This document shows positions 15,526 through 64,000 of a stretch of DNA of 64,000 nt, piece by piece; positions within the stretch are counted from its first letter, which is position 1, and each line of letters starts with the position of its first letter. The translations under genes were made by a program, and so were the position numbers. The notes under the pieces are model-generated. The model was not told the DNA's origin. It ran no database searches and worked only from the letters and a program-made list of their open reading frames with translations. Source of the DNA: Yuukianura sp. NJ FZ-2021 (taxonomy: Eukaryota); the NCBI GenBank assembly GCA_046563655.1, contig CM102285.1, positions 2,170,001 through 2,234,000 of the forward strand. Reading direction: 5' to 3'.

Positions 15526-18500
15526 ATGAGAATTTGTTTGTACCTGTGCGTTGTATTTTTCGTAAAAGTGATCCTACTATGTTCCTTAGTAGTTGCCGAG
15601 TGTGATGAAAACGGAAACGTTTTCATCACCGGCGACGTAGTAAGCTTAAAAAATTTGTTTGACACAAATTCGTTTGTTTGCGAACCTGATCGTCTTCCAA
15701 AATCCATTACCATTTTGGCGTCTGCACTCTTTGAAGTGGATACAGAGGAAGCATGGGGTCCGATTTTGGTACAACCCAGAGGCTTCTTTACATTGGTGGC
15801 CAAGATTGTGTTTCAATCGGTAGGTTTAGTACCAAACGGTGGAGAACGACGCAAACGCAGAGAAGTCAGTTCTTCTTTGCGTAAGTATTGGCAAGGGTCA
15901 GAGAGCGGGAACTTTATAGGAGTAGCAATGGAATGGCTCACAGGTGACCTGGGAGTGACCTATGGCGTTGCCAAACGGGAATGTTACTGGAAACCACTGT
16001 TTAACTTTGATGATAGCACAGGTTACTATTACAAACTGTAAAAACATTATTATTAAGTAGCGAATTTAGTTGATGCTTCATGTGTTTCCCGTGTCTGTCT
16101 GTCTGTCCGTCCGCCTGTCTGCCTACGCGAGTCTATAATTCTGAAACCATTGGACCGATTTTCAATCTATTTTAACAAATGAACTTCACTTTGTCTCAGG
16201 TGAATAATCGGTGTCCAATATGAACAGAAGGTCTTTAATTCCGGGTCAAAGGTCAAGGTCAAGTACATTGTTGGCGGAGATCAAAAAAATCACTCATGCA
16301 AAAGTTGTTCATCTCGTCGAGACAAATAACTTTTGTGTATCTGACCTTGACCTTTGGCCTGGTGCTTCAAATGAATGAATCTTTCCCTTATAAACCTTCT
16401 GTATATTTCGCTAGCTACATACGACGCTTACAACGGTTTATTCCAATTGTTTCTTTTAGATTTCGATTGAATTTATGAATACTTCTAATTCAGTTTTTGT
16501 AAAAAGTTTCAGCCACTATCACGATTGATGACAGAACGCTGGCTCAGGTGCAACTTACTGAAGATGAAACGTACTACAAATTGGAGTTTGAGAAAACCGT
16601 GACTGTGGACGGGAGTGATTTCGTTGTGTCCACTGCCTCAGGGATGTTCAAGCTCGAAAAAACGCCGTCCATTGGTTGCCAGCCTGATGGGAAAGACTGC
16701 GAAGAAAATTTTTATATAGCCGGTGAAAACTCTGAACTTGTCAAAAAATCTTCAAAGTCCGACACTGCACATGGCTCCGACTGTCAACCAATCCCCGAAT
16801 CAGAAAATAAAGCAACTGTTTACAGCAACGGTTATTGGTGGGTGGATATTACGCAGTACGTCAGTGACACTCCAGAAACGGTTGCCAAAACGGCGCTTGA
16901 CGTTGTAACCAAAATTCGTCACTGGACCTTTGACCTTACTCAAAAACAAAATCTGATGTCAGCTAGTGAGATTACAGTGCTGACCGGTTTAATTGACACC
17001 GTAGTTGACCAACTTCCAATCCAGCGTGACATTCTGTTTTACAACGAGTTGAAACTAATAGTTGAAAATTCGCGAAAAATTGAAAATCGTCTGGAGTCGG
17101 AATTCTTGCGCCGACTCTGTGGTAGAATTTCAGCGTCTGACGGTGACCAACGACGCTTGCTTTGGTTGTACTCGGCAGCCGCCGGGCACCGAAATAGAGT
17201 TGACCGCCAAGATGACCTTATTATTGACTTGAAAGCTTTTGTCGAGCCGATTGAAGCTGCAATTAAAGAAACAAAAGATGCGACAGATAGAAACAAATAT
17301 TTGACGCAATTAGGTGAGGATTACGAAGCTCAAACAAACATTCAAATTCACGAAGCCACAGGTTTGGTGGAAGACACACTTTTGCCAGAATTGAAGGTGG
17401 TCGAAGATAAACTTGCAAGTGGTTTTGCCGCTATTAAACAGGAAATTTCGAAAGAACTTGAAAAAGCCAAAGCAGATCAAGAAACGCTTGAAACTAATTT
17501 GAAAAATGCCATTTCATTGCAAGTCGCAAATGCTATATTTGGTGTGTTTAGTACGGTTGCGGCTGGAGTCTCAGTCATTGCTCCTCCAATTGGAACTATA
17601 GTAGGCACCGGCCTCAATATCGGCGCCACAGTTGGAAAAGGAATTGTTGACGTAAAAAATCCACAGAGACCGGTCGGCGGTTACGTATTTCCAGCTTCCA
17701 TCAGACAGCAAATGGCTCCTGTTACAAATTTTATCGAACGGAAGCGGGAGACCCTTGAGCGGAAACTCGTTCAGCTAAAAGAAAAATTTCCCAGCGAAGG
17801 TTCTTTTCAAAAACTACTCGAAAAAGCAGTTAACCTGGCAAACGAACGAAACAATCGAAAAAAATTAGCGGAAGTGAAGTTGATCGACGGTGAAATGATG
17901 TCCATCGTGCACGCAATGTCCTCGGAAGCGTCAAAAACCTCGCGCATGCGAGCGACCAGGCAAAAACCACCAACCGAGACAAACTTCACAGCCATCGCAG
18001 GCAGAGTAAAAGTGGCAGGCGATATTCTTACTTCAGCAACTGGGGCGGTGCAGGAGTATTTTGCAGCTGAAAACAACATTAAAACAATTAAAATTCAATT
18101 AGGCAAAGTTAAAAAAGAAGTTGAAGAAATGATTGAATTTAGAGACAAAACCTTCGAAAAAATGATGCCAATGGCGTTGGATTTACTGGACAGCATGAGT
18201 TTAACTGCCGAAGAATTCAATGATGAAGGGCTTGCTGCCATTGACGTCTCAACCTGGAACATAAAACAGGCCATTGGTGATGTCAAGCTTGAAATAGTCA
18301 AAATCCTTGCAAGTTTTCTCGCTGTAAAAGAAATTGAACACTCTTTCGAAAAATTGGAAGCCGTCATAGCAACTGTTGGACTCGTTTTTGAGCGCGTAGC
18401 GCAAATGAAAGAGCAACAAAGATTTGCAAATCTTGTTGTCGGCTTAGCAACAAAGGCAAAGCCAGCAGATCCACTCCAAGAGGAAATGCAACGCGTAATG

Positions 18501-19576
18501 GACGAAGCAACGTTTTCGAGTTTGGGAGAAAAAGTTACTTTTGCATTTCGGATGTGGGCGTTTCCATTTGCCAAAGTTTTTCTCAAACCGATCGAGGAAC
18601 AAACAGGAGCATTTGGACGGCCATTGGAAGACGTCGCAAAAGAAACTGTTGCTCAAGTGGCTGAAATCAAAGATGCGTTACATAAATATACTACAACAGT
18701 TAACGCAGAAATAGATCATCATCGGCGCGCCTTTGATTTTTACAAGGAAGCAGGTTTCGAAAATGATCCATTCTACGTTTGGAAATGGGCTACCCACAAG
18801 CAAGAAATTCTGGATCTTCTGAGCGGGAAAACTGTATCGCTTGATGCAAACATTTTGCACTTCCGGGACGATGGCATGCATTTTGAAAAAGAAGCGTTTA
18901 AATTTGGCGCAATCAGTTTGCACTTTTCCGTTGCGAATAACGACACGGTAGTTCAAAATCGCCTGAACGAAGGGCTTGTTGAATTCTATTTGAGCATCGT
19001 TCACATGGGCCTCAATTACTATCACTTTCAAGGGAAAAACTACGTTTTTAGAACAGGAGTAACCAAGTTTGGTGTATCGGGAGGCGACTTTAGTGAAGAT
19101 AAAAAGAGGTTTGATCACCAAACATTTTCAATGACAAAATATGCCGGTGGAGATGCAACGCTGAGTCCGTACACTACATGGAAGTTTAAACTTACAAAGA
19201 CGCGGGAAACTTCGGACTGGAACAAATTGAAACTTTTGGAAGGTGAGGAAATAAACTTGGAACTAATTGGAACGGGATATTTGGTTCAGCCATTTTTGGG
19301 AGAATTCTACAAGGATGACACTATGGCTGACTTTTTTGAGGTAAATTAAAACAAATTAATTAAAAGTGCTATAACGTATTGCATTACATGTTCCAGATTT
19401 TTGCCTTTTAATTTTTATAGCCGATTGGCGATGGAGAAATTGGCGCGAACAGGCGTAGTGGATACTCTGGTTCACGGCTCAAAAAATGCCGACCAAAAGT
19501 AATGGATGTTGAGCCTCACCAACATTTCGCTCAAGACGCTGCAGGCGAAGTACATGAACTTAGCCATTCCACCTAA
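15526..19576 (+). CDS. Large secreted coiled-coil protein (~1,150 aa), putative alpha-helical pore-forming toxin-like; 3 exons (~15526-16021, ~16513-19340, 19421-19576)
   Basis: Signal peptide MRICLYLCVVFFVKVILLCSLVVA; RRKRR furin-type site; 933-aa open exon with long heptad helices flanking the hydrophobic hairpin AIFGVFSTVAAGVSVIAPPIGTIVGTGLNIGATVG; beta-rich C-terminus with LSPYTTWKFKL; donor gag|gtaaat and acceptor ttatag|ccg give a terminal exon. The first intron boundaries are uncertain and the function is inferred. Confidence 0.7.
16045..16442 (+). mobile_element. Short HINE/DINE-1-like (Helentron-associated) non-autonomous element
   Basis: TAGCGAA ... TTCGCTA subterminal inverted repeat, (TGTC/CGTC)n microsatellite, GGTCAAAGGTCAAGGTCA and AAAAGTTGTTCATCTC.TCGAGA...AACTTTT shared with the element at 20868. 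Confidence 0.55.
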
Positions 19577-23000: not shown

Positions 23001-23752
23001 GTTCCCAACCTAAATTTATGGACTGAAAGAAAACAGCTGTAGTTTCTTTCAGTTTCTTTCAATTTTCAGTTTATTTCATTTTTTTCATGCATCCTGTTTC
23101 AATGTCACAACCTGTTTTTAGATGGCTGTTTTATGATCTACCAGACTATAACGATGGCATTGGTGCTATGGAGTACATTTTTGAAGCGTTTCCAACATGT
23201 TTTGACTTTGGAAACAAACTGGCTGGTAAAGTATCTTCCCTTAGATCAGTTGGAGATCCTCAGGATTATACTGCCTCAACAGTCACAATCTTTGAGTACA
23301 GGGATTTCCAAGGACAAGCAGCATTCGTTTCACATGAGTTCGCTCCTCCAGGAGGCAACTACCAACAAAACCTAATCTAAATCAAAATTTCAATTAATCC
23401 AAATTTCTTACCTTATTTTATTTTTTTTACTTTAGAATTTGTGGGTTTTGCTGCCCTTCGGCGTATTGGGTCTCTGATTATCACTGGGAAAAATCCCTGG
23501 ACAATTTTTGACAGATATGATGATGTTGAAAAAGTAAATAGAAATGTGTGTCTGCAACCGGAAACGTTGGCCCTGTTTCCATACTCGGATTCAACGCCGT
23601 CACTCATTTCAGATATTTCTGATTTTAACCCAGCATCTCACATTAAGAAGATAAGTGCTCTCGAAGCTGGGTGTACCAAGGCTGATACTACAGCCACTCT
23701 TCGCAGACAAATTCGTCGGGGCAAAAATGATGATACGTATGAGAACCAGTGA
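20054..23752 (+). CDS. Secreted beta/gamma-crystallin-domain protein, copy A1 (exons ~20054-20268, 23122-~233xx, ~23436-23752; first intron expanded by nested repeats)
   Basis: Signal-like MFCSLWTVVVVVSVQA; Greek-key-type motifs LFHEPNCEG, AKSVRLLGAWLFYDLPDYN, VSSLRSV, VTIFEYRDFQG, IGSLIITGKNPWTIFD. Confidence 0.7.
20868..22262 (+). mobile_element. HINE/DINE-1-like (Helentron-associated) element carrying an expanded GC-rich minisatellite
   Basis: 5' hairpin AATAATTGACTC..GAGTCAATTATT (20868-20898); subterminal IR ATAATAGCGAAG (20899-20910) / CTTCGCTATTAT (22224-22235); (GTCC/GTCT)n microsatellite; 3' small hairpin CGGTT-TAC-AACCG. Confidence 0.6.
21470..22200. repeat. GC-rich minisatellite (~22-23-bp unit CCCCGGGGCACTCACCCCCTCTC grading into a GGAGCAAAAAAGTGCGGGGAACAC-type unit)
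   Basis: Direct reading; explains the Pro/Gly-rich ORFs found in all frames. Confidence 0.95.
22283..22942. repeat. 11-bp tandem repeat (GGTATGTTGTT/GGTATGTTGTG)n
   Basis: About 60 near-perfect units read directly. Confidence 0.97.
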
Positions 23753-24388: not shown

Positions 24389-25737
24389 ATGGCAATCACG
24401 AAAGGGATAATACAGCTACTAGCTATGTTTATCTTCCTACTGCCACTTAAGCGTGAGTATTATTTAAAACCAAGCAGAAAGAAATTTTGAAATGCGAAAC
24501 TTGTCTTATCATAAGTTTTACATTCCCTTAACTTTATTTTCGTATAGTCTGCGCACAGGACAGAAGTGATGTTGCACATCGAGGCGAACGAGTGTCACCA
24601 AACAAAGATAGCCCTGGTAATTCTTTCAATACTTACGAGGCAACATTCCCAACCGGTCGTCAAGTTTTTGAATTTAAAAATACATTTATATTCTGTATGT
24701 CAACGTAAAATTTTCCGCACTATTTTTGGTTGCTAACGTCAAAAAGAATTACCCCGACCTGGGCTCGAACCCGTGACATCACTCCAAAGAAGAAAAAATT
24801 ATTTATGTGAAATTCTTCAACAGAAAACGTGTTTAAAATGTTATATCATACAATCTTGACGTTTTCTATTGAATAATTTGACATCAAAAATATTTTTTCT
24901 CTTTTTCTGAACTAGGGCAATGGGTTCGAGCCCAGAGCGGGGTACTGTATTTCTGGTGTTGGCACCCGAAACTACCGCAGAAAAGAATTTCTTTGGACAT
25001 ACCGAATACGACTGTGTTTTTTGAAATTCAAGAACTTGACGATCGGTTTCGTTAGTTTATATTTTTTCAGTTATTGCAATAACCTGAAATTAATTTGAAA
25101 GTATTTTTAATGGTTATTCAGTAATTCAACTTTATCCATTACTCCAGGCTACCCAGTGTCAATGACATCAGATGAGGTAAAAGCTATCAAGTTGAAATTA
25201 AATTGCGGCCAAAATGGAACTAAACTTCAGAGTCGCAGCGGAAACAAATGTACTGACGATGGGTTCAAAGCACCCAAAGAAATTAAGGACCGTCCAGTAT
25301 ATCGCATAACCCCAGTTGGAGTGGGTCAAGCTGACTACAGGGTTTGTCGGGTTTTATTTAGGAGCGAAGCACATGGTACATATTTTATCATGGGACAAGC
25401 ATGGTTGGAAAATGACAAATGGAGATGTGCATATCCTTACGGCGGAGTTGCTAACAAGGATGACAGTGGCACCTACTTTGAAATACTGACAGGGGATAAC
25501 TACAAGCAGGTAATTGTAGAAGGTGAAATTCCGCCTAATGCAGTGCCGGGCGGCGTCACTTTTGAGGTGGGCAAACCCAGAACAGTCGTGAATTGGGTGG
25601 GATTGCATATTGAAAGGACTTACTTTTATGTTGGTAGGATACCAATTGAGACTCCTAATTCCATCTACTACATGTATCACGATGGATATGAATATAGTGA
25701 GTACTCACCATTTCTTATATTGGCGTGTAAAGAATAA
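24389..25737 (+). CDS. Secreted DM9-repeat (DUF3421/natterin-N-like) protein, copy B1 (3 exons)
   Basis: Signal-like MAITKGIIQLLAMFIFLLPL; VCRV..., CAYPYGG...YFEILTG, GEIPPNAVPGG, YVGRI match DM9 repeat patterns. Confidence 0.7.
24651..25048. mobile_element. Foldback MITE in intron 2 of B1
   Basis: AACCGGTCGTCAAGTTTTTGAATTT ... AAATTCAAGAACTTGACGATCGGTT; inner IR GGGCTCGAACCC / GGGTTCGAGCCC; absent from the equivalent intron of paralog B2. Confidence 0.75.
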
Positions 25738-25880
25738 ACTCAATGCTAAATTTCCTCCGAATGCTAAGTTTCGGTTGGATTATACCCATGTGGGCGCATG
25801 TTAAAAACTTAGAAAAATTTCGAGAAAAAGGTCAATGACATCACCAAACAACCCAAAAAATGACCTCTACAAATGTTGTT

Positions 25881-26228
25881 GGGCAAGCATGGTTCGAAAA
25901 TGGCACATGGAGATGTGCATATCCATACGGCGGAGACTCACACAAAAATGAAAATGACACCTACTTTGAATTACTGACGGGGCTTGACTATGACCTATTT
26001 CGCCTCTTGGGTGGAAGTGAAATTCCGCCGAATGCAGTTCCGGGTGGTACAATTCTTGAGCAGGGCCAACCCAGAGAAGTAGTGAACTGGGTGGGATTGT
26101 ACGATGGACACCCTCGCCATTATGTTGGAAGAATTCCAATTGAGTATCCCAATTACATCTACTACATATATGGCAATGGATATGAACGCAACGTATACCG
26201 ACCATTTTTTATATTGGTTTGTAAATAA
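25881..26228 (+). pseudogene. 5'-truncated DM9-repeat gene copy (B') fused to a repeat fragment
   Basis: GQAWFENGTWRCAYPYGG...FILVCK is clearly paralogous to B1/B2; upstream sequence ATGACCTCTACAAATGTTGTT matches the HINE-like element (21070-21150 region) and not the gene. Confidence 0.65.
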
Positions 26229-26348: not shown

Positions 26349-27387
26349 ATGGTTTACACTCTGTTCATGGTAGTTGTAGTCGTTTCCGTTCAACCTCAGT
26401 TCACATTGTCAGACGACAACTCAGATCCTTACAGGCCAACAATGACGCTGTTTAGTGAGGCGAATTGCCAAGGGAAACCTCTTGACTTTCTGGGAGGCGT
26501 CAATTTGCCTAACCTTGATTATGACGGCTACAGTCTCAATGTCGCAAAATCAGTTAAAATATTAGGATCGTAAGTTTTGTTGTTTTTTTTTATTATAGTT
26601 CAAAACAATAATAATTTTGTTTCCTATATTATATATTAAAAAAACTGTAAAAATTGAAGCAAAATGCAGAAAACTTTATTTTCGCAGCGATGTTGCTGGA
26701 ACTAACAGCAGAATACTTTGATGTTAGCTAGATATTGTATTCGATACTGCTTTAATGTCAGAAAATTTTTTTTTAGATGGTTGTTCTATCATCTATCCAA
26801 CTTTAACAGTGGAATTGCTCCTATGCAGTACATTTTTGACGCGTTTCCAATATGCTATGACTTTGGAGACAAAATGGGTGGTAAAGTATCGTCGTTAAGG
26901 TCAATTGGAGATCTTCGCGGCTATACTGACCCAACAATCACAATTTATGAATTCAGGGATTTCCAAGGAGAAGCAAAATTCGTTTCACAAGGTCCTTGGA
27001 AATACAACTTAATCTAAATCAACATTTTAAACGAGTTACGTTGTATTTCTATTTATTTTTTTTTCTGTAGAGGGAAGAGGTTTTGTTAGTCTACCTCGCG
27101 TTGGGTCACTGATTATCACCGGACAAGATCCATGGACAATTTACGACAAATATGATGAGGTGGAAAAAGTCAATAGAAGCCTATGTCTGCAACCGGAAAA
27201 ATTGACCCTGTTTCCATACACGATCTCTACGCCGTCAGTCCTCTCAAATATTTATGATTTTGAACCAGCATCTCACATTAAGAGGATAAGTTTTGTCGAA
27301 GTTGGCTGCACAAAAGCTGATTCGAAAGCCACAATCCGCCGGCAAATACGCAAAGGCAAAAATGATGATGCGTATGACAACTATTAA
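26349..27387 (+). CDS. Secreted beta/gamma-crystallin-domain protein, copy A2 (3 exons)
   Basis: MVYTLFMVVVVVSVQP signal-like; LFSEANCQG, WLFYHLSNFN, VSSLRSI, TIYEFRDFQG, GSLIITGQDPWTIYD; same exon structure as A1. Confidence 0.72.
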
Positions 27388-27736: not shown

Positions 27737-28766
27737 ATGATCACGGAAATCATGAAGGGGATAATAACGGTCGTGTTTGTCTTCCTGCAACCACGTAAAG
27801 GTGAGCAAATTTAAAACTAACGTTAAGTACTAAACTTTTGAAACAATAGATTTGTTTAGTACAAGTTTTAAATTTTTTTAATTTTATTTTTGTCAAGGCG
27901 TTTGTACAAAAATAGTATTTTACTTCTTCTATCTTTTCTTAAACAAGAGTGATTCCATTGTTTTTTAACCTTGATTTTTGTAGTATGCACACAAGATAGC
28001 AGTGATGTTACACCTCAAGGCGAACGAGCGGAGCCAAACCAAGATAGCCCAGGTAACTAATTAAATATTTACACTTTCGTTTTTGACATTTGACAATTAT
28101 TACAGTATTTTGAAATTCATTTCAATGTTTTTAATGGTAAGTCAATTAATGACTTTTTAATCACCCCCAGGTCACCGCGTGTCAATGACATCCGAAGAAG
28201 TAAAAGCTATCAAGTTAAAATTAAATTGCCGTCAAAATGGAACTAAACTTTAGAGTCGCAGCGGAAAAAGTTGTACGGATGATGGATTCAAAGAACCCAA
28301 AGAAATTGAAGACCGTCCAGTATACCGCATAACCCCAACCAACAGTGGTCAAGCTGACTACAGAGTTTGTCGAGTTTTATTCAGTAATGGAGCACATGGT
28401 ACACATTTTATCATGGGACAAGCATGGTTGGAAAATGACGAATGGAAATGTGCATACCCGTATGGTGGAGTTGCAAATAAAGTTGAAAGTGGCGACTACT
28501 TTGAAATACTGACGGGGGATGGCTATGACCTAGCACGTATAAATGTGCGAAGTAATATTCCGTCAAATGCAGTACCGGGAGGAGTGACATTTGAGGTGGC
28601 CAAACCGAAAAAAGTCGTGAATTGGGTAGGGTCGATATTGCAATACAGTCACTATCATGTTGGGAGGATACCGATTGAATATCCTAATTACATCTACTAC
28701 ATGAATCCCGACGGATATGAAATTTATGAAAAACCACCATTTTTTATACTGGTTTGTAAAAAATAA
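27737..28766 (+). pseudogene. DM9-repeat gene copy B2 with an in-frame nonsense codon
   Basis: Collinear with B1, but AAACTTCAGAGT (B1) is AAACTTTAGAGT (TAG at 28251-28253). Confidence 0.65.
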
Positions 28767-36563: not shown

Positions 36564-37789
36564 GTATCAAAATTTCTCAATTCGGCTTGGTTAAGTCTAA
36601 GTCATTCTGACATAGATTGTGAGTTAGTACCTTAGGTACGCTTTTACGGCAAATCTCTGATACTTTTCGCACCCTCAAACGTTAGCAGAAAACGTTATGA
36701 TCATGATGCTCGCCGTCATTACGATCGGTGGCCATTTCGAAAATAACATTGCAGGAGGATGTCGCTCTTGCTCTCCACGTGGCCCCAGCGTTTGTGGTCA
36801 TTGATGACCATGTCAAAGGTCAAGGTCGTCTTAGCCTTGCATAGAATGGAGGCACTTGTTGATATCATTTTTGATTTTATTTTTATGTATATGGCTGCAG
36901 ATGTGGAGATCTATGACCATGTCAAAGGTCAAAGTCGCTCTTGACTTCCCTGGAATCGGCGAAGTTGTTGATTTCATTTACGGCTGTAGATGTCGACATC
37001 GGTAGACATGTCTTTATCTCGGTACTTCACAGATTCACTGATTTTTGGTCATTTGTGACCTTTCACATGAGCGGAAGCCAATGCCAGTGACTCCCATTTG
37101 TTCCCAACGGAGCCCGCTGTTAGCGCCTCCCAGAAGATGAGTGCATGAAACACCACTGTTTTAGGCACAGTTTTTTACAATTTTTACTTACTTTTACCTT
37201 TGTTAACCTTTGGTGACCTCCAGGTCACTGGATCTGCTCACAAACGGTCGCCATGTGTAACGCCCTACGACGCTAAACAACTGGAAAATGCTCCCCACGA
37301 GACTACTCACTGAGCCCACAGACTCACAGATCCAATAACCTCCAAGAAACCACCACTGAAAACCACGTCGATACATAAATATATGAAGATATATTTATTG
37401 TATCGATAAATACCGAATAACACAATCATGACGAAACTGATCTCCAACTCAATCGAACACCAAATCAGAACTAACGACTAAACTCTAATATACAAAATCT
37501 CCTTTCTCTCTAAACCACACCGCATCTCAAATCTTTCGCGGCTCAACTCGCCGCATCCTAACCTAACTAATCGCCAGAGTAGCAGACGTCAACAAACAAA
37601 AAAAACGAAAAACAACACTTCCTGTCTGAGAAAGACGAGTCCGTTGTACGGCAAATCTTTCTGCTTCGCGTACCCCATTTTTACGAGGGCGAGAGCACGT
37701 CATTTCCTGCGTCTTTGAATGGGTATTCCCGACTTTGTATTTCTTTTCCAGATTATCTCTCTTTTTGCTCCTGCGACCGGAAGTTACTC

Positions 37790-38577: not shown

Positions 38578-40150
38578 CACAGAGAATATGGCATGCCGAA
38601 TTTTTTGCGGAGAACTCTGTCAATGTTAATTCTTACATTGTAGAGCTTTGCTGGTGCGAGCATGTCATACATGTAGGCACACCTAAAATAAAAAGCAGTA
38701 TATTTAATCACAAGTTGGCCAAAGTTCTAAATAACCTAACTCGATTAAATGAAAACTAATTTAGCGTGCTCACACCGCTACCTCGAATAAATATGGCCGC
38801 TGCCACGCCCTCAGACTCCGAATCACTGATCCGCAGATCCCACAACCTACCGAAAGACCAGAACTCACCAGAACACAAAACACATCGCTGAAATAAAAAT
38901 ATAAGTATATATTTATTGTAGCATGTAAATAAACTGAAAATGATCACTGAATAATACAACGTGAATACGAACTGATCATCTCACCTCTGATCTCTCTCCC
39001 ACCAAAGCACAATACAGACTAAAAACTAAACTATACACAAAATCCAATCTTCCTCTTCACCTCGCCTCTCTTCGAATCTCCCACAATACACATCCTCATC
39101 TCATCGTACCCCTACTCTGAATCTGTACACTAACCTAATGATACTAACAATAGGGTAATCGATGAGCAGCCACTTCACTAACCAGTTTTTAATGTCGATG
39201 ACCACCAACAGGATATGCACTGGAATTTTTACAGATACGAGCACGATCTCGGTATCCGATGGTATGGCCAAAAACGTTACCTCCATAATTCCCAGAACGT
39301 CCATCGTAGGGATGACGAATGATGTTGCTTTTAGGTCGCTGTAATGACAGCCTAAATCCAGCTCGCTGTATTCCGATACATTGAAATGCACAGAACGAAA
39401 TGCCTGTTCCGTTGGAATGTAGTGTATTTTTTTTGGCGAAGTGCATACTTTCTGTATCAGTTTCTACAAAACAAAAAGAATTAGAGTATTAAATATTTGT
39501 TTAAATATTAAGAAACTAAACTGACCAACATTCATAAACGCGCAAAAAATCACAGGACGAGTTCCTTTGTCTGTCTCAGCTGCAAGTTCATCCACCAGTT
39601 GTTTCCCTACCTTGGCCCCGTGGTCGTAGTGTTCGTCTTTGCATTCGATGGACTTCTAAACGTGTTCTGGAGCGGTTGCACGTTAGGTGAATCCATCCAA
39701 TCAAGGCGATGTGAAGCCGGGACATTTTTCATCATGAAGTATGAATGCACTTCATGAAGTCCGCGCTGAGTACAGACGAGATCATTCACTCTGTATATGA
39801 GTTCGTCACGATCGGTTGTTGTGTTTCTGAAATTTTGAAATAAAATTTTAGATGGACACATTCTAGCATAGTCTACACATTGAATTTTAGTAACTATTTG
39901 TAATTAGTAAAACAACTTATTAATGTTAAACTTGCCCTATTTGTCGAAATTTGTCCACCACTATTGAGTAATCTTCGCGAATTACCCGAGGAACTCCTTT
40001 GGGCTTCCCTCTCATGTCGGAGGGTAATACTTCCAATACTTCTTCCCAATGTCTGGTGAAGTATGACGGAAGACGCGTTCCGCACTGAAAGCGTTGACAG
40101 ACATTGACAATCAGCGGTGCCGGTGGTGGAGTTTTTGATGTTGATGACAT
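38578..40150 (-). pseudogene. Multi-exon gene of unknown function inside the TIR element, interrupted by stops/frameshifts
   Basis: Collinear minus-strand ORF pieces (39926-40150, 39607-39861, 39101-39460, 38756-38890, 38578-38683) separated by AT-rich intron-like gaps with AG acceptors. Confidence 0.4.
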
Positions 40151-40616
40151 TTTACTTTAACGTTAAACGTTTAGGCTAACTTTACTTGTAATCATCTAGT
40201 GCTTTGGTACAGGTTAGGTTGTGAACTGAATACACAAGAACAGCAAGTCTCCTCCACCATTTCGCTATTTCGAGATAATTTTTAGGATGCAATTCCTAGA
40301 TTTCTCCAACACCCGAGGCTAAACAGCTTGTACCAACGTGTAACTAGACACGTTTGAAGCATGTTTCATTAACACACAGACAAACACCAGCATATGAATT
40401 TTGAACGTTTGAAATTTTAAAAGTAGAATTTTTAGAATGCAAATACTAGAACACCCAGGGCTAACAGGTTGTACACTTATACACGTTAGAAGCAATTTTT
40501 TTAACACAAGGATGCAAGTGCACAATCGCAATTCTCCTCTCAGTTAACTTCCCAGTCCCTATGACGAATCCACGCCAACCGGACGAGTCACACGAGTTCA
40601 TTCACAACCATGTATC

Positions 40617-41912
40617 AGCTAATGGAAGTGGCAGGGAAAAGCCCCTTTTTCAAAATGGCCGCCGTGCTTATCAGCAATTGCATCTACAATGACGTTTTTT
40701 TTTGGATGACGTCATAACCCCACCCACTTCCACACCCCCCTTCTTCCTGCTATATATCCCTCCCCCTATATCCCCCCTAAACGTTACCTCGCCCATACAA
40801 AAAAAAAAATAAAAAAAAATACAACAATGGAAATTTGGCAACAATTGAATTTTAATACAAAAATTTTTGAAAATTTAAAAAAAAATGAAATTTGAAAATA
40901 AAATAGATGTCTAATATTTTTAAACTTGCAAAATCTGAAGTAGCTATTCGTCGCTGTCGCTGAAGTGGTCTGAGGAATCTTGTCCGGAGGAAGCTGCTGG
41001 TTTCTTTGCATACCCAAATCCATCTGGTTTGTGAATACGCTTAGCAAATCCTTTCTTGGATCGTAGAACATGCAAATGATTCTTTCTTGCATTCGTTCCG
41101 ATGACATGGTGAGTTGTGTCTGGGCAATTACATTTGTCAATCTTGTATCTTTATATCTCTTATATCTCCCCCCAAAGTATGTCACCTTTGTTCAATGCAA
41201 TGCGGCTGCGCACCTTGATGATATTTCGTCCTTGCAGTCTTCCACCATAATACCTCACGTTGCGTACCTTGGGATTGCAGGCGTGGTTGATAAACCTAGC
41301 CAGATTTCCTTGTTTCTTTGCATCGATGTACTTGCCCTTTGCCACCTCAAAAAGATAATTGGTCAGCACTCAAGAAAAGAGTAGCATATGATTCAACTCA
41401 TCCATTCGCCTAACCCAACCCGTAGTTAAATTCGTACCCATCTTTTCTCCCCTTTGTCATGCAGCATTCTCTTCCGCTTCCATTTGTAGTTTTTCTTCCT
41501 CTGTGATTATTTCTCCGGCGTACAATAATAAATCAGTGTTGGCCGGAATATCTTTTGCCGATTTGAGCCCAAGTCCCTCGACACGTTCTTCATAGTATAC
41601 GTAGAACCACGGAGTAGGCGGGAAGTTTTTAGCATCGACTTCGACGTTGCTGTAAACGATCGATCCGACCCTTTCAAATTTTTGCATGTTATGCAGTTTG
41701 TCTAACTCCTTTTGCGCCTTTTCGTCAGTTGTGAGTAGTGAAACCCCGATGCATGCCGCTGGAAATCAAAAACCGACAGCGATTACGATAGACGGTTCGA
41801 TCACTGGGGGGTGATGACGTCATCCAAAAAAAACGTAATTGGAGATGCAATTGCTGATAAGCACGGCGGCCATTTTGAAAAAGGGGGCTATTCCCTTCCA
41901 CTTCCATTAGCT
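40617..41912. mobile_element. Nested 1.3-kb TIR element with AG...CT termini and perfect 6-bp TSD (Maverick/Polinton-like deletion derivative)
   Basis: TGTATC|AGCTAATGGAAGTGG ... CCACTTCCATTAGCT|TGTATC; ~105-bp TIRs (40617-40721 / ~41808-41912), over 90% identical by eye. Confidence 0.88.
40944..41759 (-). pseudogene. SET-domain lysine methyltransferase gene, spliced, 5'-truncated, with nonsense codons
   Basis: GLGLKSAKDIP...LYAGEII (motif I), YLFEV...IDAKKQGNLARFINHACNP (motif III), then KGDILW and post-SET-like KCNCPDTTHHVIG; phase-1 intron g|gtacg...ttgag; TGA at 41457-41459 and a TAA-containing 9-bp duplication GAGATATAA. Confidence 0.85.
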
Positions 41913-43808
41913 TGTATCGAGCTTGCACTTTTTGACTTTTACGACAAACTTGGTTTGGCAGGAACAAACTGATTAGGACTCATGTTGTACATGTTACAAA
42001 AGTTCAAATATAGAACTTGTAAAACAAAACCTGATTTGATATTTCAGTATAGCTTTATTTGAACAAAAACTTACTTTGGAGAGGACGGTTTGGGTAGGTT
42101 ACATCCGAGTGCCTAGGTATTTTGCTAACCTGAAGTGTTAAGTTTCAATTCTAGATTTATTCAAAGTTTTAGTTTATTGGTTTATTCAAGCAAAATGGGC
42201 AGAGAGAAGATCAAAAGACAAAATCAGACTGTTTTTTAAAATGTGGAAGAAATGATATTTAAAGGCTTCTGAAACAATGTCAAGAAGTAAGAACAGTTAC
42301 AAGTTACTCCTCGAAAATATACATACAACAATGCGGGCCTTGAGTGGCCAAACGAAAAGAGAGATTCGACGGGCAATGTTCGAAATGGAAATAGGAATTC
42401 ATGGAAAGAGAACTGACTCATGAGTGAATCATAGTCCAAAGAGTTAAACTTAAAGTTAAAAAAATGTTATCTTCAACACGAAGTAAGTTTGATCCGAACT
42501 AAACTGAGTCCCAATTTCAACTCATTCTTACAGAGATGGTCTACTGTGCTTAAAGGAAGTCGGCAGAAAACAAAAGGATTTTTGAACTGACTTGAAACAG
42601 AATTCAAAAACAGGATGCTAACTTTATGGTTAGGTCAATTGACTTGACCTTAAGCTTTTAAGAAAACAGTGAAACTTAGCTTTAATTACACATCCTCTAC
42701 CATTCATTCTTTGAAAATGGCCGCCGGTCGCAACGACGGCAACCATCATGACCATAAGCTTTTCTGCAAACGTTTGAGGGTCCGAGAAGAAGCAGCGATT
42801 TGCCCTAAAAGCGTCGCTAATGTCCTAACTTTTGTCTATAATGATTTTGGGGTGATTTAAAAATAACTTTATTTAGGTTAACTTTAAAGCTGCAAAAAAG
42901 CTAATTGTAAAATTTAATCAAAAATAATTACTGTGACATCTGAATTAAACCGAAGAGTGAAAACTTCAAATCAGAGCGTCCCCGTCATTTTTAATTGGAA
43001 AGTGGGTTTACTGCAGATTTATTTTAAATTTCAAACTCAGTTACATTGTCGCTCAGCTTTACTTTTTTACAGTTTTTTACAAAACGCTTTACAATTATGA
43101 ATTATTATAATGATAATGAATCATATCAAAACTTGTAGCATTTCAAGTAGGAAACACGTTCCTCTTCATTCAAAAATGTTGTCTGCTTTAAGTCCTTCAG
43201 AGAAAATGTCTATAAAAATTTTAACGTTTCAAAAATAAACTTCAGCTAGCTAGCTTCAGCACCGGCGTGAAATTTTCCACTCTGAAGATTATGGCTTCTA
43301 GCCTTTTAGGCTTTTTCCGATTAGCTTTTCATATTTTGAGAAAAGTTTTAATTTCCATACAAAAGCCTTGTTTTTTTTTTTGCTCTGTGAGACTGGCATA
43401 TGTAGCCAGTCGCTTTATAGATTGAAAAAAAAATAGAAGCTGTTGGTAGGAACCATAAAAAAATTACAGGAGGTATACTACAGTCATAGCAAATATTATA
43501 TCACTGCCTATACTTCGTTAGTTTGATATTCACAATTCAAAGTTCAAATTTGTCCTACTGTATCTTATTTGTATTGCTATTTTTCCTAGCACAAAGTCAA
43601 CTTTGAGATCCACAACAAAACATGCAGCTTTGCTGGACGTGGACATGAATCATTTTTTTTGTCAGTGTCCGGGAAGGGAAAACAAGATCCCGCTATGTAG
43701 GAAATATGAAATTTCCATTTAATACATTACAATTTAATTACTCTCACCAGTAGCACGTTTCTGGGGTCAAACAAATTGAAAAAGTCACCAACTAAAAACA
43801 TCCCAGAA

Positions 43809-48865: not shown

Positions 48866-49162
48866 AAGGTTCCTTGACAACGAAAAGTTGTTGTTTTGTT
48901 TGTTTTTCGTTAACAGGTTGGGTACTACCTCGCTAGTTGACAAAAAAAAACGGAAAAAAAAATTAATACCAATTTAGTACCAATCCAAGAAATTGATACT
49001 AATTCGTATGTAAAAATTTAAAAAAATGGCTCCATTGCTATGACTACGATGTACTCAAACGAAAATGGAAAATTTTCGGCAGAATCGCGAAAACATGAGG
49101 TAGTACCCAACCTGTTGATGAAAAACAAACAAAACAACAACTTTTCGTTGTCAAGGAACCTT
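48866..49162. mobile_element. MITE with ~65-bp TIRs
   Basis: AAGGTTCCTTGACAACGAAAAGTTGTTGTTTTGTTTG...GGTACTACCTC / GAGGTAGTACCCAACC...CAAACAAAACAACAACTTTTCGTTGTCAAGGAACCTT. Confidence 0.85.
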
Positions 49163-63120: not shown

Positions 63121-64000
63121 TTGGGTTTCTCACTTCTTACACAACTTTCTCACTGCTTTGCACAACTTTCTCACATCTTAAAACTGGGTTTCTCACTTCT
63201 TCCACAACTTTCTCACTTCTTAAAACTGGGTTTCTCACTTCTTACGCAACTTTCTCACTTCTTAAAACTGGGTTTCTCACTTCTTACGCAACTTTCTCAC
63301 TTCTTAAAACTGGGTTTCTCACTTCTTACGCAACTTCCTCACTTCTCAAAACTGGGTTTCTCACTTCTTGAAACCCGGTGTATAGCTTTCATAATTGTAT
63401 CTGTCGCTGAAATACGTTTCAACTATAGTTATATTTGCCAGGTTAGGTTTCCAATCTCGCTTTAGCGACATAGTGCAACATATGACGAGATGATAATGGT
63501 CAAGTTTAAGCGTTTGTTGACAAAAAAAAAAACAACGTTTTTGGAACACAGCGGAGTTTTTTTTTTAAATATGCAACTGCCTGCATTCCGTTGGCCATTT
63601 TCATGCACTTTGAGTTACGACTCTGTACATTTGTACAGATGTGCAGAGTCGTACATAAATATGTACGAATCTGCTAATCGGATGGATTATGTTACCAGCG
63701 TACGTTACTTACGCTGCATTAGTGGTGGTGCATTCAGTACTTTTCTGGAACAGTACTTTAATTAGCCCAGTTTTACAAATAATCCCATTTCCAAAACTGG
63801 GTACCCAGTTCTACGAAGTGAGAAACCCAGTTTTAAGAAGTGAGAAAGTTGCGTAAGAAGTGAGAAACCCAGTTTTAAGAAGTGAGAAAGTTGTGGAAGA
63901 AGTGAGAAACCCAGTTTTAAGAAGTGAGAAAGTTGTGGAAGAAGTGAGAAGCCCAGTTTTAAGAACTGAGAAAGTTGTGGAAGAAGTGAGAAACCCAGTT
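63121..64000. repeat. Foldback-type element: 42-bp tandem repeat array (63121-63370) and its reverse complement (~63813 to window end)
   Basis: Unit AAAACTGGGTTTCTCACTTCTTACGCAACTTTCTCACTTCTT on the left and AAGAAGTGAGAAAGTTG..GAAGAAGTGAGAAACCCAGTTTT on the right. Confidence 0.85.

Follow-up and report, generated by a model that had tools for sequence, protein, structure and literature searches.

A decayed SET-domain gene as the apparent sole cargo of a 1.3-kb transposon with Polinton-like ends in Yuukianura sp.

Introduction

Mobile DNA that carries a SET-type gene has been described from several quarters: from HarbingerS and MuDR families of Phytophthora (PMC12730594), from Helentrons and a proto-Helentron (PMC4067079), and from the Plavaka element PAG2 of red algae (bioRxiv 10.1101/2025.02.11.637652). 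In the passages of the literature cited here and below, such genes are treated as captured or accessory, and one paper sees in them a counter to epigenetic silencing (PMC12730594, PMC4067079, bioRxiv 10.1101/2025.02.11.637652). These elements encode a transposase or Rep-helicase of their own and are members of other classes. Here, we analyse a stretch of 64,000 nucleotides from Yuukianura sp. NJ FZ-2021 (assembly GCA_046563655.1, contig CM102285.1, positions 2,170,001 to 2,234,000; hereafter the window), in which a 1,296-bp element (40617–41912) with terminal inverted repeats (TIRs) carries a SET-domain gene. SET-bearing mobile DNA is thus already known, but in contrast to the described elements, this one appears to consist of its ends and the SET gene only, its ends are Polinton-like, and its host is an animal.

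Two further groups of elements invite comparison. Polintons, or Mavericks, span 13–25 kb with TIRs of 100–1500 bp (PMC10748475) and a 6-bp target-site duplication (TSD) (PMC10045372); vertebrate Mavericks end in (AG)3//(CT)3 or (AGT)2//(ACT)2 next to perfect 6-bp TSDs (PMC8097293). The window element shares with them the 6-bp TSD, the AG..CT termini and a TIR of at least 100 bp (PMC10045372, PMC8097293, PMC10748475), and with their non-autonomous members that it has no replication or integration genes of its own. It differs in its length of 1.3 kb, its single AG, the absence of any core-gene remnant and its SET cargo. Non-autonomous Polintons reportedly exist, Kapitonov and Jurka being said to have described them in 2006. 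A full-text literature search turned up no SET link to Polinton/Maverick elements or polinton-like viruses, with papers containing all terms judged by title (general works, giant viruses). The other group are Pack-MULEs, gene-carrying Mutator-like elements (MULEs), whose long TIRs likewise surround host-like gene sequence and possibly serve as promoters (PMC3310237). The window element is unlike these in the length of its TSD (6 bp) and in its cargo, a complete gene. MULE TSDs measure about 9–10 bp, and Pack-MULEs usually carry gene fragments.

Results

The element is bounded by two TIR arms, at 40617–40721 (plus strand) and 41808–41912 (minus strand), which are 93% alike across their full 105 nt; 99 of 106 aligned columns are identical, with five mismatches and two one-base gaps (BLAST E = 8e-39). 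The 5′ end reads AGCTAATGGA and the 3′ end TCCATTAGCT, with AGCTAA as the letters at the start and TTAGCT as those at the end; the left arm begins AGCTAATGG and the right arm ends CCATTAGCT. Immediately outside, reading of the sequence gives the same six letters, TGTATC, at 40611–40616 and at 41913–41918, a perfect TSD; beside fixed ends, simple arithmetic puts the chance of a 6-base match at about 1/4096. The TIRs and the perfect TSD mark a genuine transposon insertion: the unit was inserted in one piece through a 6-bp staggered cut of its target, and its own mobilising enzyme is absent. Within the window, there is no further copy of the TIR, only low-complexity matches of at most 36 nt, and no joint across 40616 to 41919, as from an empty-site allele, was reported in contigs of the source sample, which cannot show absence. 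The left TIR contains a YY1-like AAAATGGCCGCC at 40652 and the palindrome TGACGTCA at 40707–40714; the palindrome recurs in the right TIR at 41815–41822, about 35 nt upstream of the expected SET start. Inward of the left TIR follows a spacer (40722–40943, minus strand), pyrimidine-rich, then A/T-rich and of low complexity, with ATTAAA at 40851–40856, which from its position is presumed to be the 3′ untranslated region of the SET gene.

The gene itself is a SET-domain pseudogene on the minus strand (40944–41780), recognised by Pfam and BLASTP. One continuous frame runs from about 41798 to the TAG at 40944–40946 with no frameshift needed; the expected start (~41780) is some 30 nt inward of the right TIR, and the stop about 220 nt from the left TIR. 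The translation, read for all searches with X at stop codons, contains GLGLKSAKDI, YAGEII, GNLARFINHACNP (with ARFINHAC) and a post-SET CNCPDTTHH. Cofactor and active-site motifs of SET domains are GxG, YxG and NHxC, and their counterparts GLGL, YAGE and INHAC are all present; in the alignment of 119 homologues described below, the N and C of NHxC are invariant and the H nearly so. Pfam SET (PF00856) matches residues 75–199 on profile positions 1–91 of 105 (E = 1.2e-11, 45.4 bits against a cut-off of 22.4).

The same frame carries the damage. Five in-frame stops occur in the 284 translated codons (40947–41798), where composition predicts about 19 per 279 codons: TGA at 41766–41768, near the expected N-terminus by BLASTP and alignment (GF*F), TGA at 41457–41459, TGA at 41370–41372, and TAA at 41160–41162 and 41151–41153. 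The two TAA codons stem from a tandem 9-nt duplication, GAGATATAA twice (41151–41168, minus strand), which by sequence and by the end of the Pfam match sits at the expected catalytic-tyrosine motif. The last 14 SET profile positions are missing, the gap coincides with the duplication, and a C-terminal ELxF/YDY motif with the catalytic tyrosine was not found, its site being occupied by the duplication with its two TAA codons. There is no ATG near 41780, where the homologue P0002 starts, and the first in-frame ATG is at 41687. An alternative genetic code behind the in-frame TGA and TAA codons can be rejected: the host exons of the window are open under the standard code and match Pfam. Judging by these lesions, the copy is evidently dead, unable to make an active enzyme, and the small number of stops relative to the ~19 predicted, together with the lack of any frameshift, indicates that the gene decayed recently.

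One of the stops, the TGA at 41370–41372, lies in a putative intron, a 69-nt GT..AG stretch within the variable SET-I region (41369–41437, minus strand). This stretch has a pyrimidine tract and falls within a gap of the alignment to the homologue P0003. Its length resembles that of the introns (~62 and ~120 nt) which reading by eye gave for the fatty-acid-synthase gene with which the window opens, and an intron here is plausible. A preliminary description of the locus, made from its sequence, thus holds for the ~105-bp TIRs with AG start and CT end and for the perfect TGTATC duplication, and its interior SET gene (GLGLK, YAGEII, a post-SET-like motif) is borne out by the motifs and the Pfam score. 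It had called the copy dead from the TGA at 41457–41459 and the TAA duplication, to which the TGA at 41766–41768 and the missing ATG can be added; its GT-AG intron stands as plausible, by tract, host-like size and the P0003 gap.

Homologues of the gene are remote. When 1.84 billion representatives were searched exhaustively with HMMER, 145 hits reached E ≤ 1e-3 and a single one passed E ≤ 1e-10, while no hit had E ≤ 1e-30; the best hit is 29% identical, and identity to every hit stays at or below ~35–40% over short stretches. The top three, P0002 (231 amino acids), P0003 (223) and P0004 (176), are complete proteins of small size, each a singleton cluster from a metagenome contig of 1.2–1.8 kb. 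BLASTP aligns window residues 8–250 with residues 2–229 of the 231 of P0002, and window residues 28–261 with residues 19–222 of the 223 of P0003. The P0002 alignment crosses both a supposed splice acceptor (41762) and the TGA at 41766–41768, with thin similarity over the first ~25 residues (GFxF, EK); in the MAFFT alignment, GFxF is common to all three sequences at the N-terminus. A protein starting at the ATG at 41687 would also keep every block that the homologues share, including KFxRxxSIVY. Because complete homologues of 223–231 amino acids align end to end inside the element, no upstream exon or larger parent is required. Measured against these homologues, the gene appears whole, and the element seems to be made up of its ends, one gene and nothing else.

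These alignments revise the preliminary description in one respect. It placed the start of the gene at a splice acceptor near the inner edge of the TIR and took the element for an internal-deletion derivative; the frame continues upstream of the AG at 41762 and homology to P0002 runs through it, so that the derivative rested on an acceptor which the homology does not support, and the gene is complete against its homologues. It had also raised the possibility of a one-off capture nearly identical to a host gene: with a best hit of 29%, it cannot count as the close copy of a conserved host gene. A word-indexed protein search with the X-read gene gave no match at E ≤ 1e-3 among proteins of near or shorter length. 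In viral_contigs, none of 88 pattern matches was confirmed as a SET relative, and there was no exact match to the 37-nt TIR core. Nine metagenome loci with SET relatives were fetched, and none of the nine has DNA similarity to the element. At three of these (L001–L003), the nearest SET relatives are single-exon open reading frames (ORFs) on contigs of 1.2–1.5 kb with 38–40% G+C (window 37%); L002 and L003 come from one metagenome and hold related but different SET ORFs.

What kind of SET enzyme did the gene encode? The best solved relatives are catalytic fragments of SETD2 (E = 5e-8), and the ESM Atlas model of P0003 is closest to models of ASHH1, SETD2 and NSD (template-modelling scores, TM, 0.63–0.69 by query). 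A domain scan covering 119 of the 145 hits found SET in all 119, AWS in 35 and an NSD-type PHD, PWWP or SRI in fewer; no transposase, integrase or helicase domain was fused to SET among the 22 families in these 119 proteins. The post-SET pattern CxCx4C occurs in 69 of the 119 and CxCx4H in four (P0002, P0003, P0004 and P0016), and the window gene, with CNCPDTTHH, is of the CxCx4H type. In a maximum-likelihood tree built quickly from 117 rows (the window gene and 116 hits, three of the 119 being dropped for a missing NHxC anchor), the row nearest to the window gene is P0002, and the five CxCx4H rows need two changes, a number reached in none of 500 label shuffles. No starred clade holds these rows, the tree carries a long-branch warning and the motif columns were included in the alignment; it hints, weakly, that the CxCx4H rows form a distinct SET lineage. 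We read the cargo as a SET-domain lysine methyltransferase of ~230–270 amino acids, a small, domain-poor offshoot of the SET2/NSD/ASH1 class: like the cellular enzymes of that class, it has GxG, YxGE, RFINHxC and a post-SET Cys cluster, but it is small, lacks AWS, PWWP, PHD and SRI, and has CxCx4H in place of CxCx4C as its post-SET zinc motif, the mark of a rare subfamily.

The ends and the TSD also bear on the class of enzyme that moved the element. IS3EU/GingerRoot elements have a 6-bp TSD and TA..TA, rarely TG..CA, termini, and Ginger1 has a TSD of 4 bp (PMC10045372); Ginger2/TDD has TGTNR termini and a 4–5-bp TSD or an RTATAY target (PMC2836005, PMC10045372). Dada inserts into multicopy small-RNA genes (PMC3706591). 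PIF/Harbinger elements have 3-bp TSDs (PMC4482050, PMC2213677), as do most PHIS elements, while no TSD was found for HarbingerS-9_PI (PMC4482050). For the window element, IS3EU/GingerRoot fits in TSD length, but the termini are AG..CT and not TA..TA; Ginger2/TDD does not fit, with termini AGCTA instead of TGTNR and TGTATC as the target instead of RTATAY; HarbingerS can be set aside, with no transposase present and a TSD of 6 rather than 3 bp. Dada, whose TSDs are 6–7 bp, is rejected as well, since there is no Rfam match at E ≤ 1 in 39600–42900 and thus no small-RNA gene at the target. With IS3EU/GingerRoot, Ginger2 and Dada each failing a feature, Polinton/Maverick appears to be the sole described superfamily with a 6-bp TSD that does not fail one tested here. 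The match comprises the 6-bp TSD and the 105-bp TIR, and amounts to two end bases, one length and one TIR size. The Maverick/Polinton signature that had been noted earlier at these ends agrees with the published features in AG..CT, ~105-bp TIRs and 6-bp TSD, while the class that it was taken to imply is unproven.

How repetitive is the element? We matched it, at 85% likeness, to Logan contigs of three public runs (X1, X2 and X3) of one sample and one study, which are probably the source of the assembly and not independent support, and whose contig depth is not copy number. The exact window path across the element has a depth of 19–25 in X1 and 23–32 in X3. Both TIRs are raised: the bin 40599–40709 at the left TIR reaches 129 (X1) and 136 (X3) against ~20–27 for unique sequence, and at the right TIR the contig depths in X1 add up to 2368 at position 41862, compared with ~20 for unique sequence, with the outer ~70 nt of the TIR at ~100 times single-copy contig depth. 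Four contigs match 41843–41912 and then diverge inward at 41843; their 30-letter consensus keeps a AAAAAACGT stretch like that of the window, and they resemble diverged TIRs more than unrelated DNA. The TIR pair is thus not unique, as had been asked of it earlier, and the source sample contains a repeated family to which the ends belong.

The gene behaves differently in its two halves. A diverged SET relative covers 40963–41279 with 26 substitutions and 17 gap letters in 317 nt (depth 134.6 in X1), and others cover 41336–41458 or 41075–41458 (depth 167.6 in X1, 235.5 in X3, 9.3 in X2); overall, relatives of the 3′ half are roughly 86–92% identical and at ~6–10 times the contig depth. Three of these records, one each from X1, X3 and X2, stop at 41458, the G of the in-frame TGA at 41457–41459, with up to 240 unlike letters beyond. 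Across 41487–41819, no contig matches at 85% likeness besides those of unique depth. The element is a mosaic in which the TIR, the SET 5′ half and the SET 3′ half have three different abundances. At the site of the 9-nt duplication, a relative differs by a net +15 nt, a multiple of three, and of 16 coding substitutions outside the indel patch, among those listed between window and relative, eight fall on third, six on first and two on second positions, which is not significant. The break at 41458/41459 may reflect an intron in the relatives, a window copy of chimeric origin or a 5′ half that diverged faster.

The surroundings are ordinary animal nuclear DNA with 37% G+C and short introns. Exons in the window belong to a type-I fatty-acid synthase, a trypsin-like protease, an alpha/beta hydrolase, an EB-module protein, an XK-related protein and a POT transporter. 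Of 56 ORFs of at least 110 amino acids, all read by eye, 26 were scanned with Pfam and 13 of these gave families; no transposase, integrase, polymerase or capsid family appeared in the window in either the scan or the reading. The insertion site is repeat-rich, with no Pfam-annotated ORF from ~39.5 kb to the alpha/beta-hydrolase ORF at 45.6 kb, and repeats at 42153–42707 reach contig depths of 470–1500. A 141-nt inverted pair (36622–36762 and 42690–42830, 79% complementary, 5.9 kb apart) brackets the SET element; its member at 42690–42830 lies within very high contig depth (to 1500 in X1), and the pair is probably two copies of an abundant repeat.

Elsewhere in the window, 66-nt inverted repeats at 48866–48931 and 49097–49162 (97% complementary, 165 nt apart) outline a unit of ~300 bp resembling a miniature inverted-repeat transposable element, with no obvious TSD on reading its flanks (48866–49162). 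An intronless ORF of 948 amino acids (16503–19349, plus strand) has no Pfam match at E ≤ 0.001 and is unusually long for this intron-rich window. Two sets of paralogous exons stand in tandem on the plus strand between 23381 and 28766, one (23381–23752 and 27031–27387) with the common motif GQAWLENDxWRCAYPYGG...NWVG...GRIPIE, the other (25111–25737, 25839–26228 and 28254–28766) with SLIITGxxPWTI(F/Y)D(R/K)YD(D/E)VEKVNR; together they look like a small local gene family without a Pfam match. The segment 21340–22960 is G+C-rich, has a strong strand skew and is open in several frames on both strands, a tandem-repeat array of proline-rich PGHSPPLPRGTHPLSPGALT repeats followed by VVGMLLVCCWY repeats. 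Nested inverted repeats of 87–219 nt (89–98% complementary) with a short tandem unit occupy 63158–64000 and continue past the window end.

Discussion

We interpret the element as a dead copy of a non-autonomous DNA transposon in which two ~105-bp TIRs enclose one complete small gene, a reading to which we give a probability of about one half. That a transposon carries a whole SET gene as its sole cargo is, taken by itself, highly probable. Since the element encodes no transposase, it must have been moved in trans, and the enzyme would bind the repeated ends and join them to a target whose strands are cut 6 bp apart, leaving the TGTATC duplication. The best-fitting enzyme would be the retroviral-type integrase of a Polinton/Maverick partner; we treat mobilisation of the Polinton type as a tentative assignment, just short of an even call. 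With the SET start ~30 nt inside the right TIR, the promoter would probably lie in the TIR, where the TGACGTCA palindrome stands ~35 nt upstream of the start and the YY1-like AAAATGGCCGCC further out. From active relatives, the element family would obtain an accessory protein that writes chromatin marks. The copy in the window was killed by nonsense codons and by the in-frame duplication at the catalytic C-terminal motif. Whether SET was such a functional accessory rather than a passenger is doubtful, and we lean slightly towards the latter.

Several observations weigh against this interpretation. Its termini are single AG/CT and not the (AG)3 or (AGT)2 of vertebrate Mavericks, though the host is not shown to be a vertebrate; a 105-bp TIR is at the very bottom of the range that the cited account gives for Polintons (PMC10748475); and neither Polinton genes nor an autonomous partner were seen in the 64-kb window, in which all 56 ORFs of at least 110 amino acids were read by eye and 26 of them scanned. 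No TIRs were seen at seven of the nine metagenome SET loci (all but L004 and L005), nor by a finer search of L001–L003. The 3′ half of the gene (40963–41458) is alone in having relatives of higher depth, with none for the 5′ half (41459–41842) at 85% likeness; the multi-copy SET relatives may not be copies of the cassette at all, and the TIR-sharing contigs with other interiors may mean that most family members are without SET. All depth values come from the one sample and are not copy numbers. A promoter in the TIR is suggested by two short motifs, and the copy is non-functional, giving no sign here that the protein is ever made.

The evidence could be arranged in other ways. The most serious of these takes the element for a cassette of another, possibly undescribed, cut-and-paste DDE superfamily with 6-bp TSDs, in which SET is a passenger acquired from the host or another element much as in Pack-MULEs. 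Neither the length of a TSD nor a terminal dinucleotide classifies an element with much certainty, a mosaic of three abundances is what capture or template switching would be expected to leave, TIR-sharing contigs have different interiors, the putative intron is of host size, and long TIRs that carry promoters are known in MULEs (PMC3310237). Yet each described alternative with a 6-bp TSD fails a tested feature, public protein sets hold no close host-like SET relative, and the whole gene fills the element from just inside one TIR. Such a whole, element-filling gene is unusual for captures, which are fragmentary, and we regard a DDE passenger as possible, though less likely than not.

A larger parent is harder to reconcile with the gene. 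The element would then be an internal-deletion derivative of a large Maverick/Polinton with a spliced SET gene of its own, of which the 3′ exons were left from an acceptor onwards. In favour of this are the Maverick-type ends and TSD, the AG at 41762–41763 with a short T run upstream and the missing ATG at the start position of the closest homologue; upstream of 41458, the relatives of higher depth are different, perhaps because such parents have other exons. However, homology continues upstream of the acceptor (P0002 from residue 2, GFxF in three sequences), complete homologues of 223–231 amino acids leave no part of the gene missing, the ATG at 41687 would also give a protein with the conserved KFxRxxSIVY block, and no Maverick gene fragment is present in element or window, all of which makes this derivation unlikely. 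Least probable by far is that no unit moved and a decayed host SET gene merely lies between two short elements of high repeat number, inserted independently and in opposite orientation. On its own, the sequence of the outer TIR is indeed highly repeated, and the surroundings are full of repeats, with depths of 470–1500 at 42153–42707 and the inverted pair at 36622–36762 and 42690–42830; but an identical 6-bp repeat stands exactly outside both ends, where two separate insertions should each be flanked by a TSD of their own, each arm is an outer terminus only and both stop at the same inner point, and the arms are 93% alike over the full 105 nt.

Beyond the single dead copy of a non-autonomous transposon, a wider picture can be drawn: an animal family of single-gene cassettes mobilised by Polinton/Maverick enzymes, whose TIRs would be both integrase substrates and promoters, and whose private SET2/NSD-like CxCx4H methyltransferase would mark element chromatin as ‘transcribed gene’ and so blunt silencing by heterochromatin. 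In that picture, the chromatin-writer would be an accessory gene of virus-like, Polinton-type elements that resides on a satellite rather than on the virus itself. We think it unlikely that this picture is right in all its parts, and a role in manipulating host chromatin silencing is a conjecture.

Transposon SET genes, known from oomycetes, red algae and the hosts of Helentrons, are among the few candidate cases of mobile DNA that writes chromatin marks. If our interpretation is true, a SET cassette with Polinton-like ends in an animal would extend this theme to a new class of element, and would show that a chromatin enzyme can spread as the satellite of another element, a parasite of a parasite. 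The CxCx4H subfamily, known here otherwise from four singleton metagenome proteins, could be a SET lineage of mobile elements. The dead copy has its value as a pointer to a family that could be sought in the complete genome.

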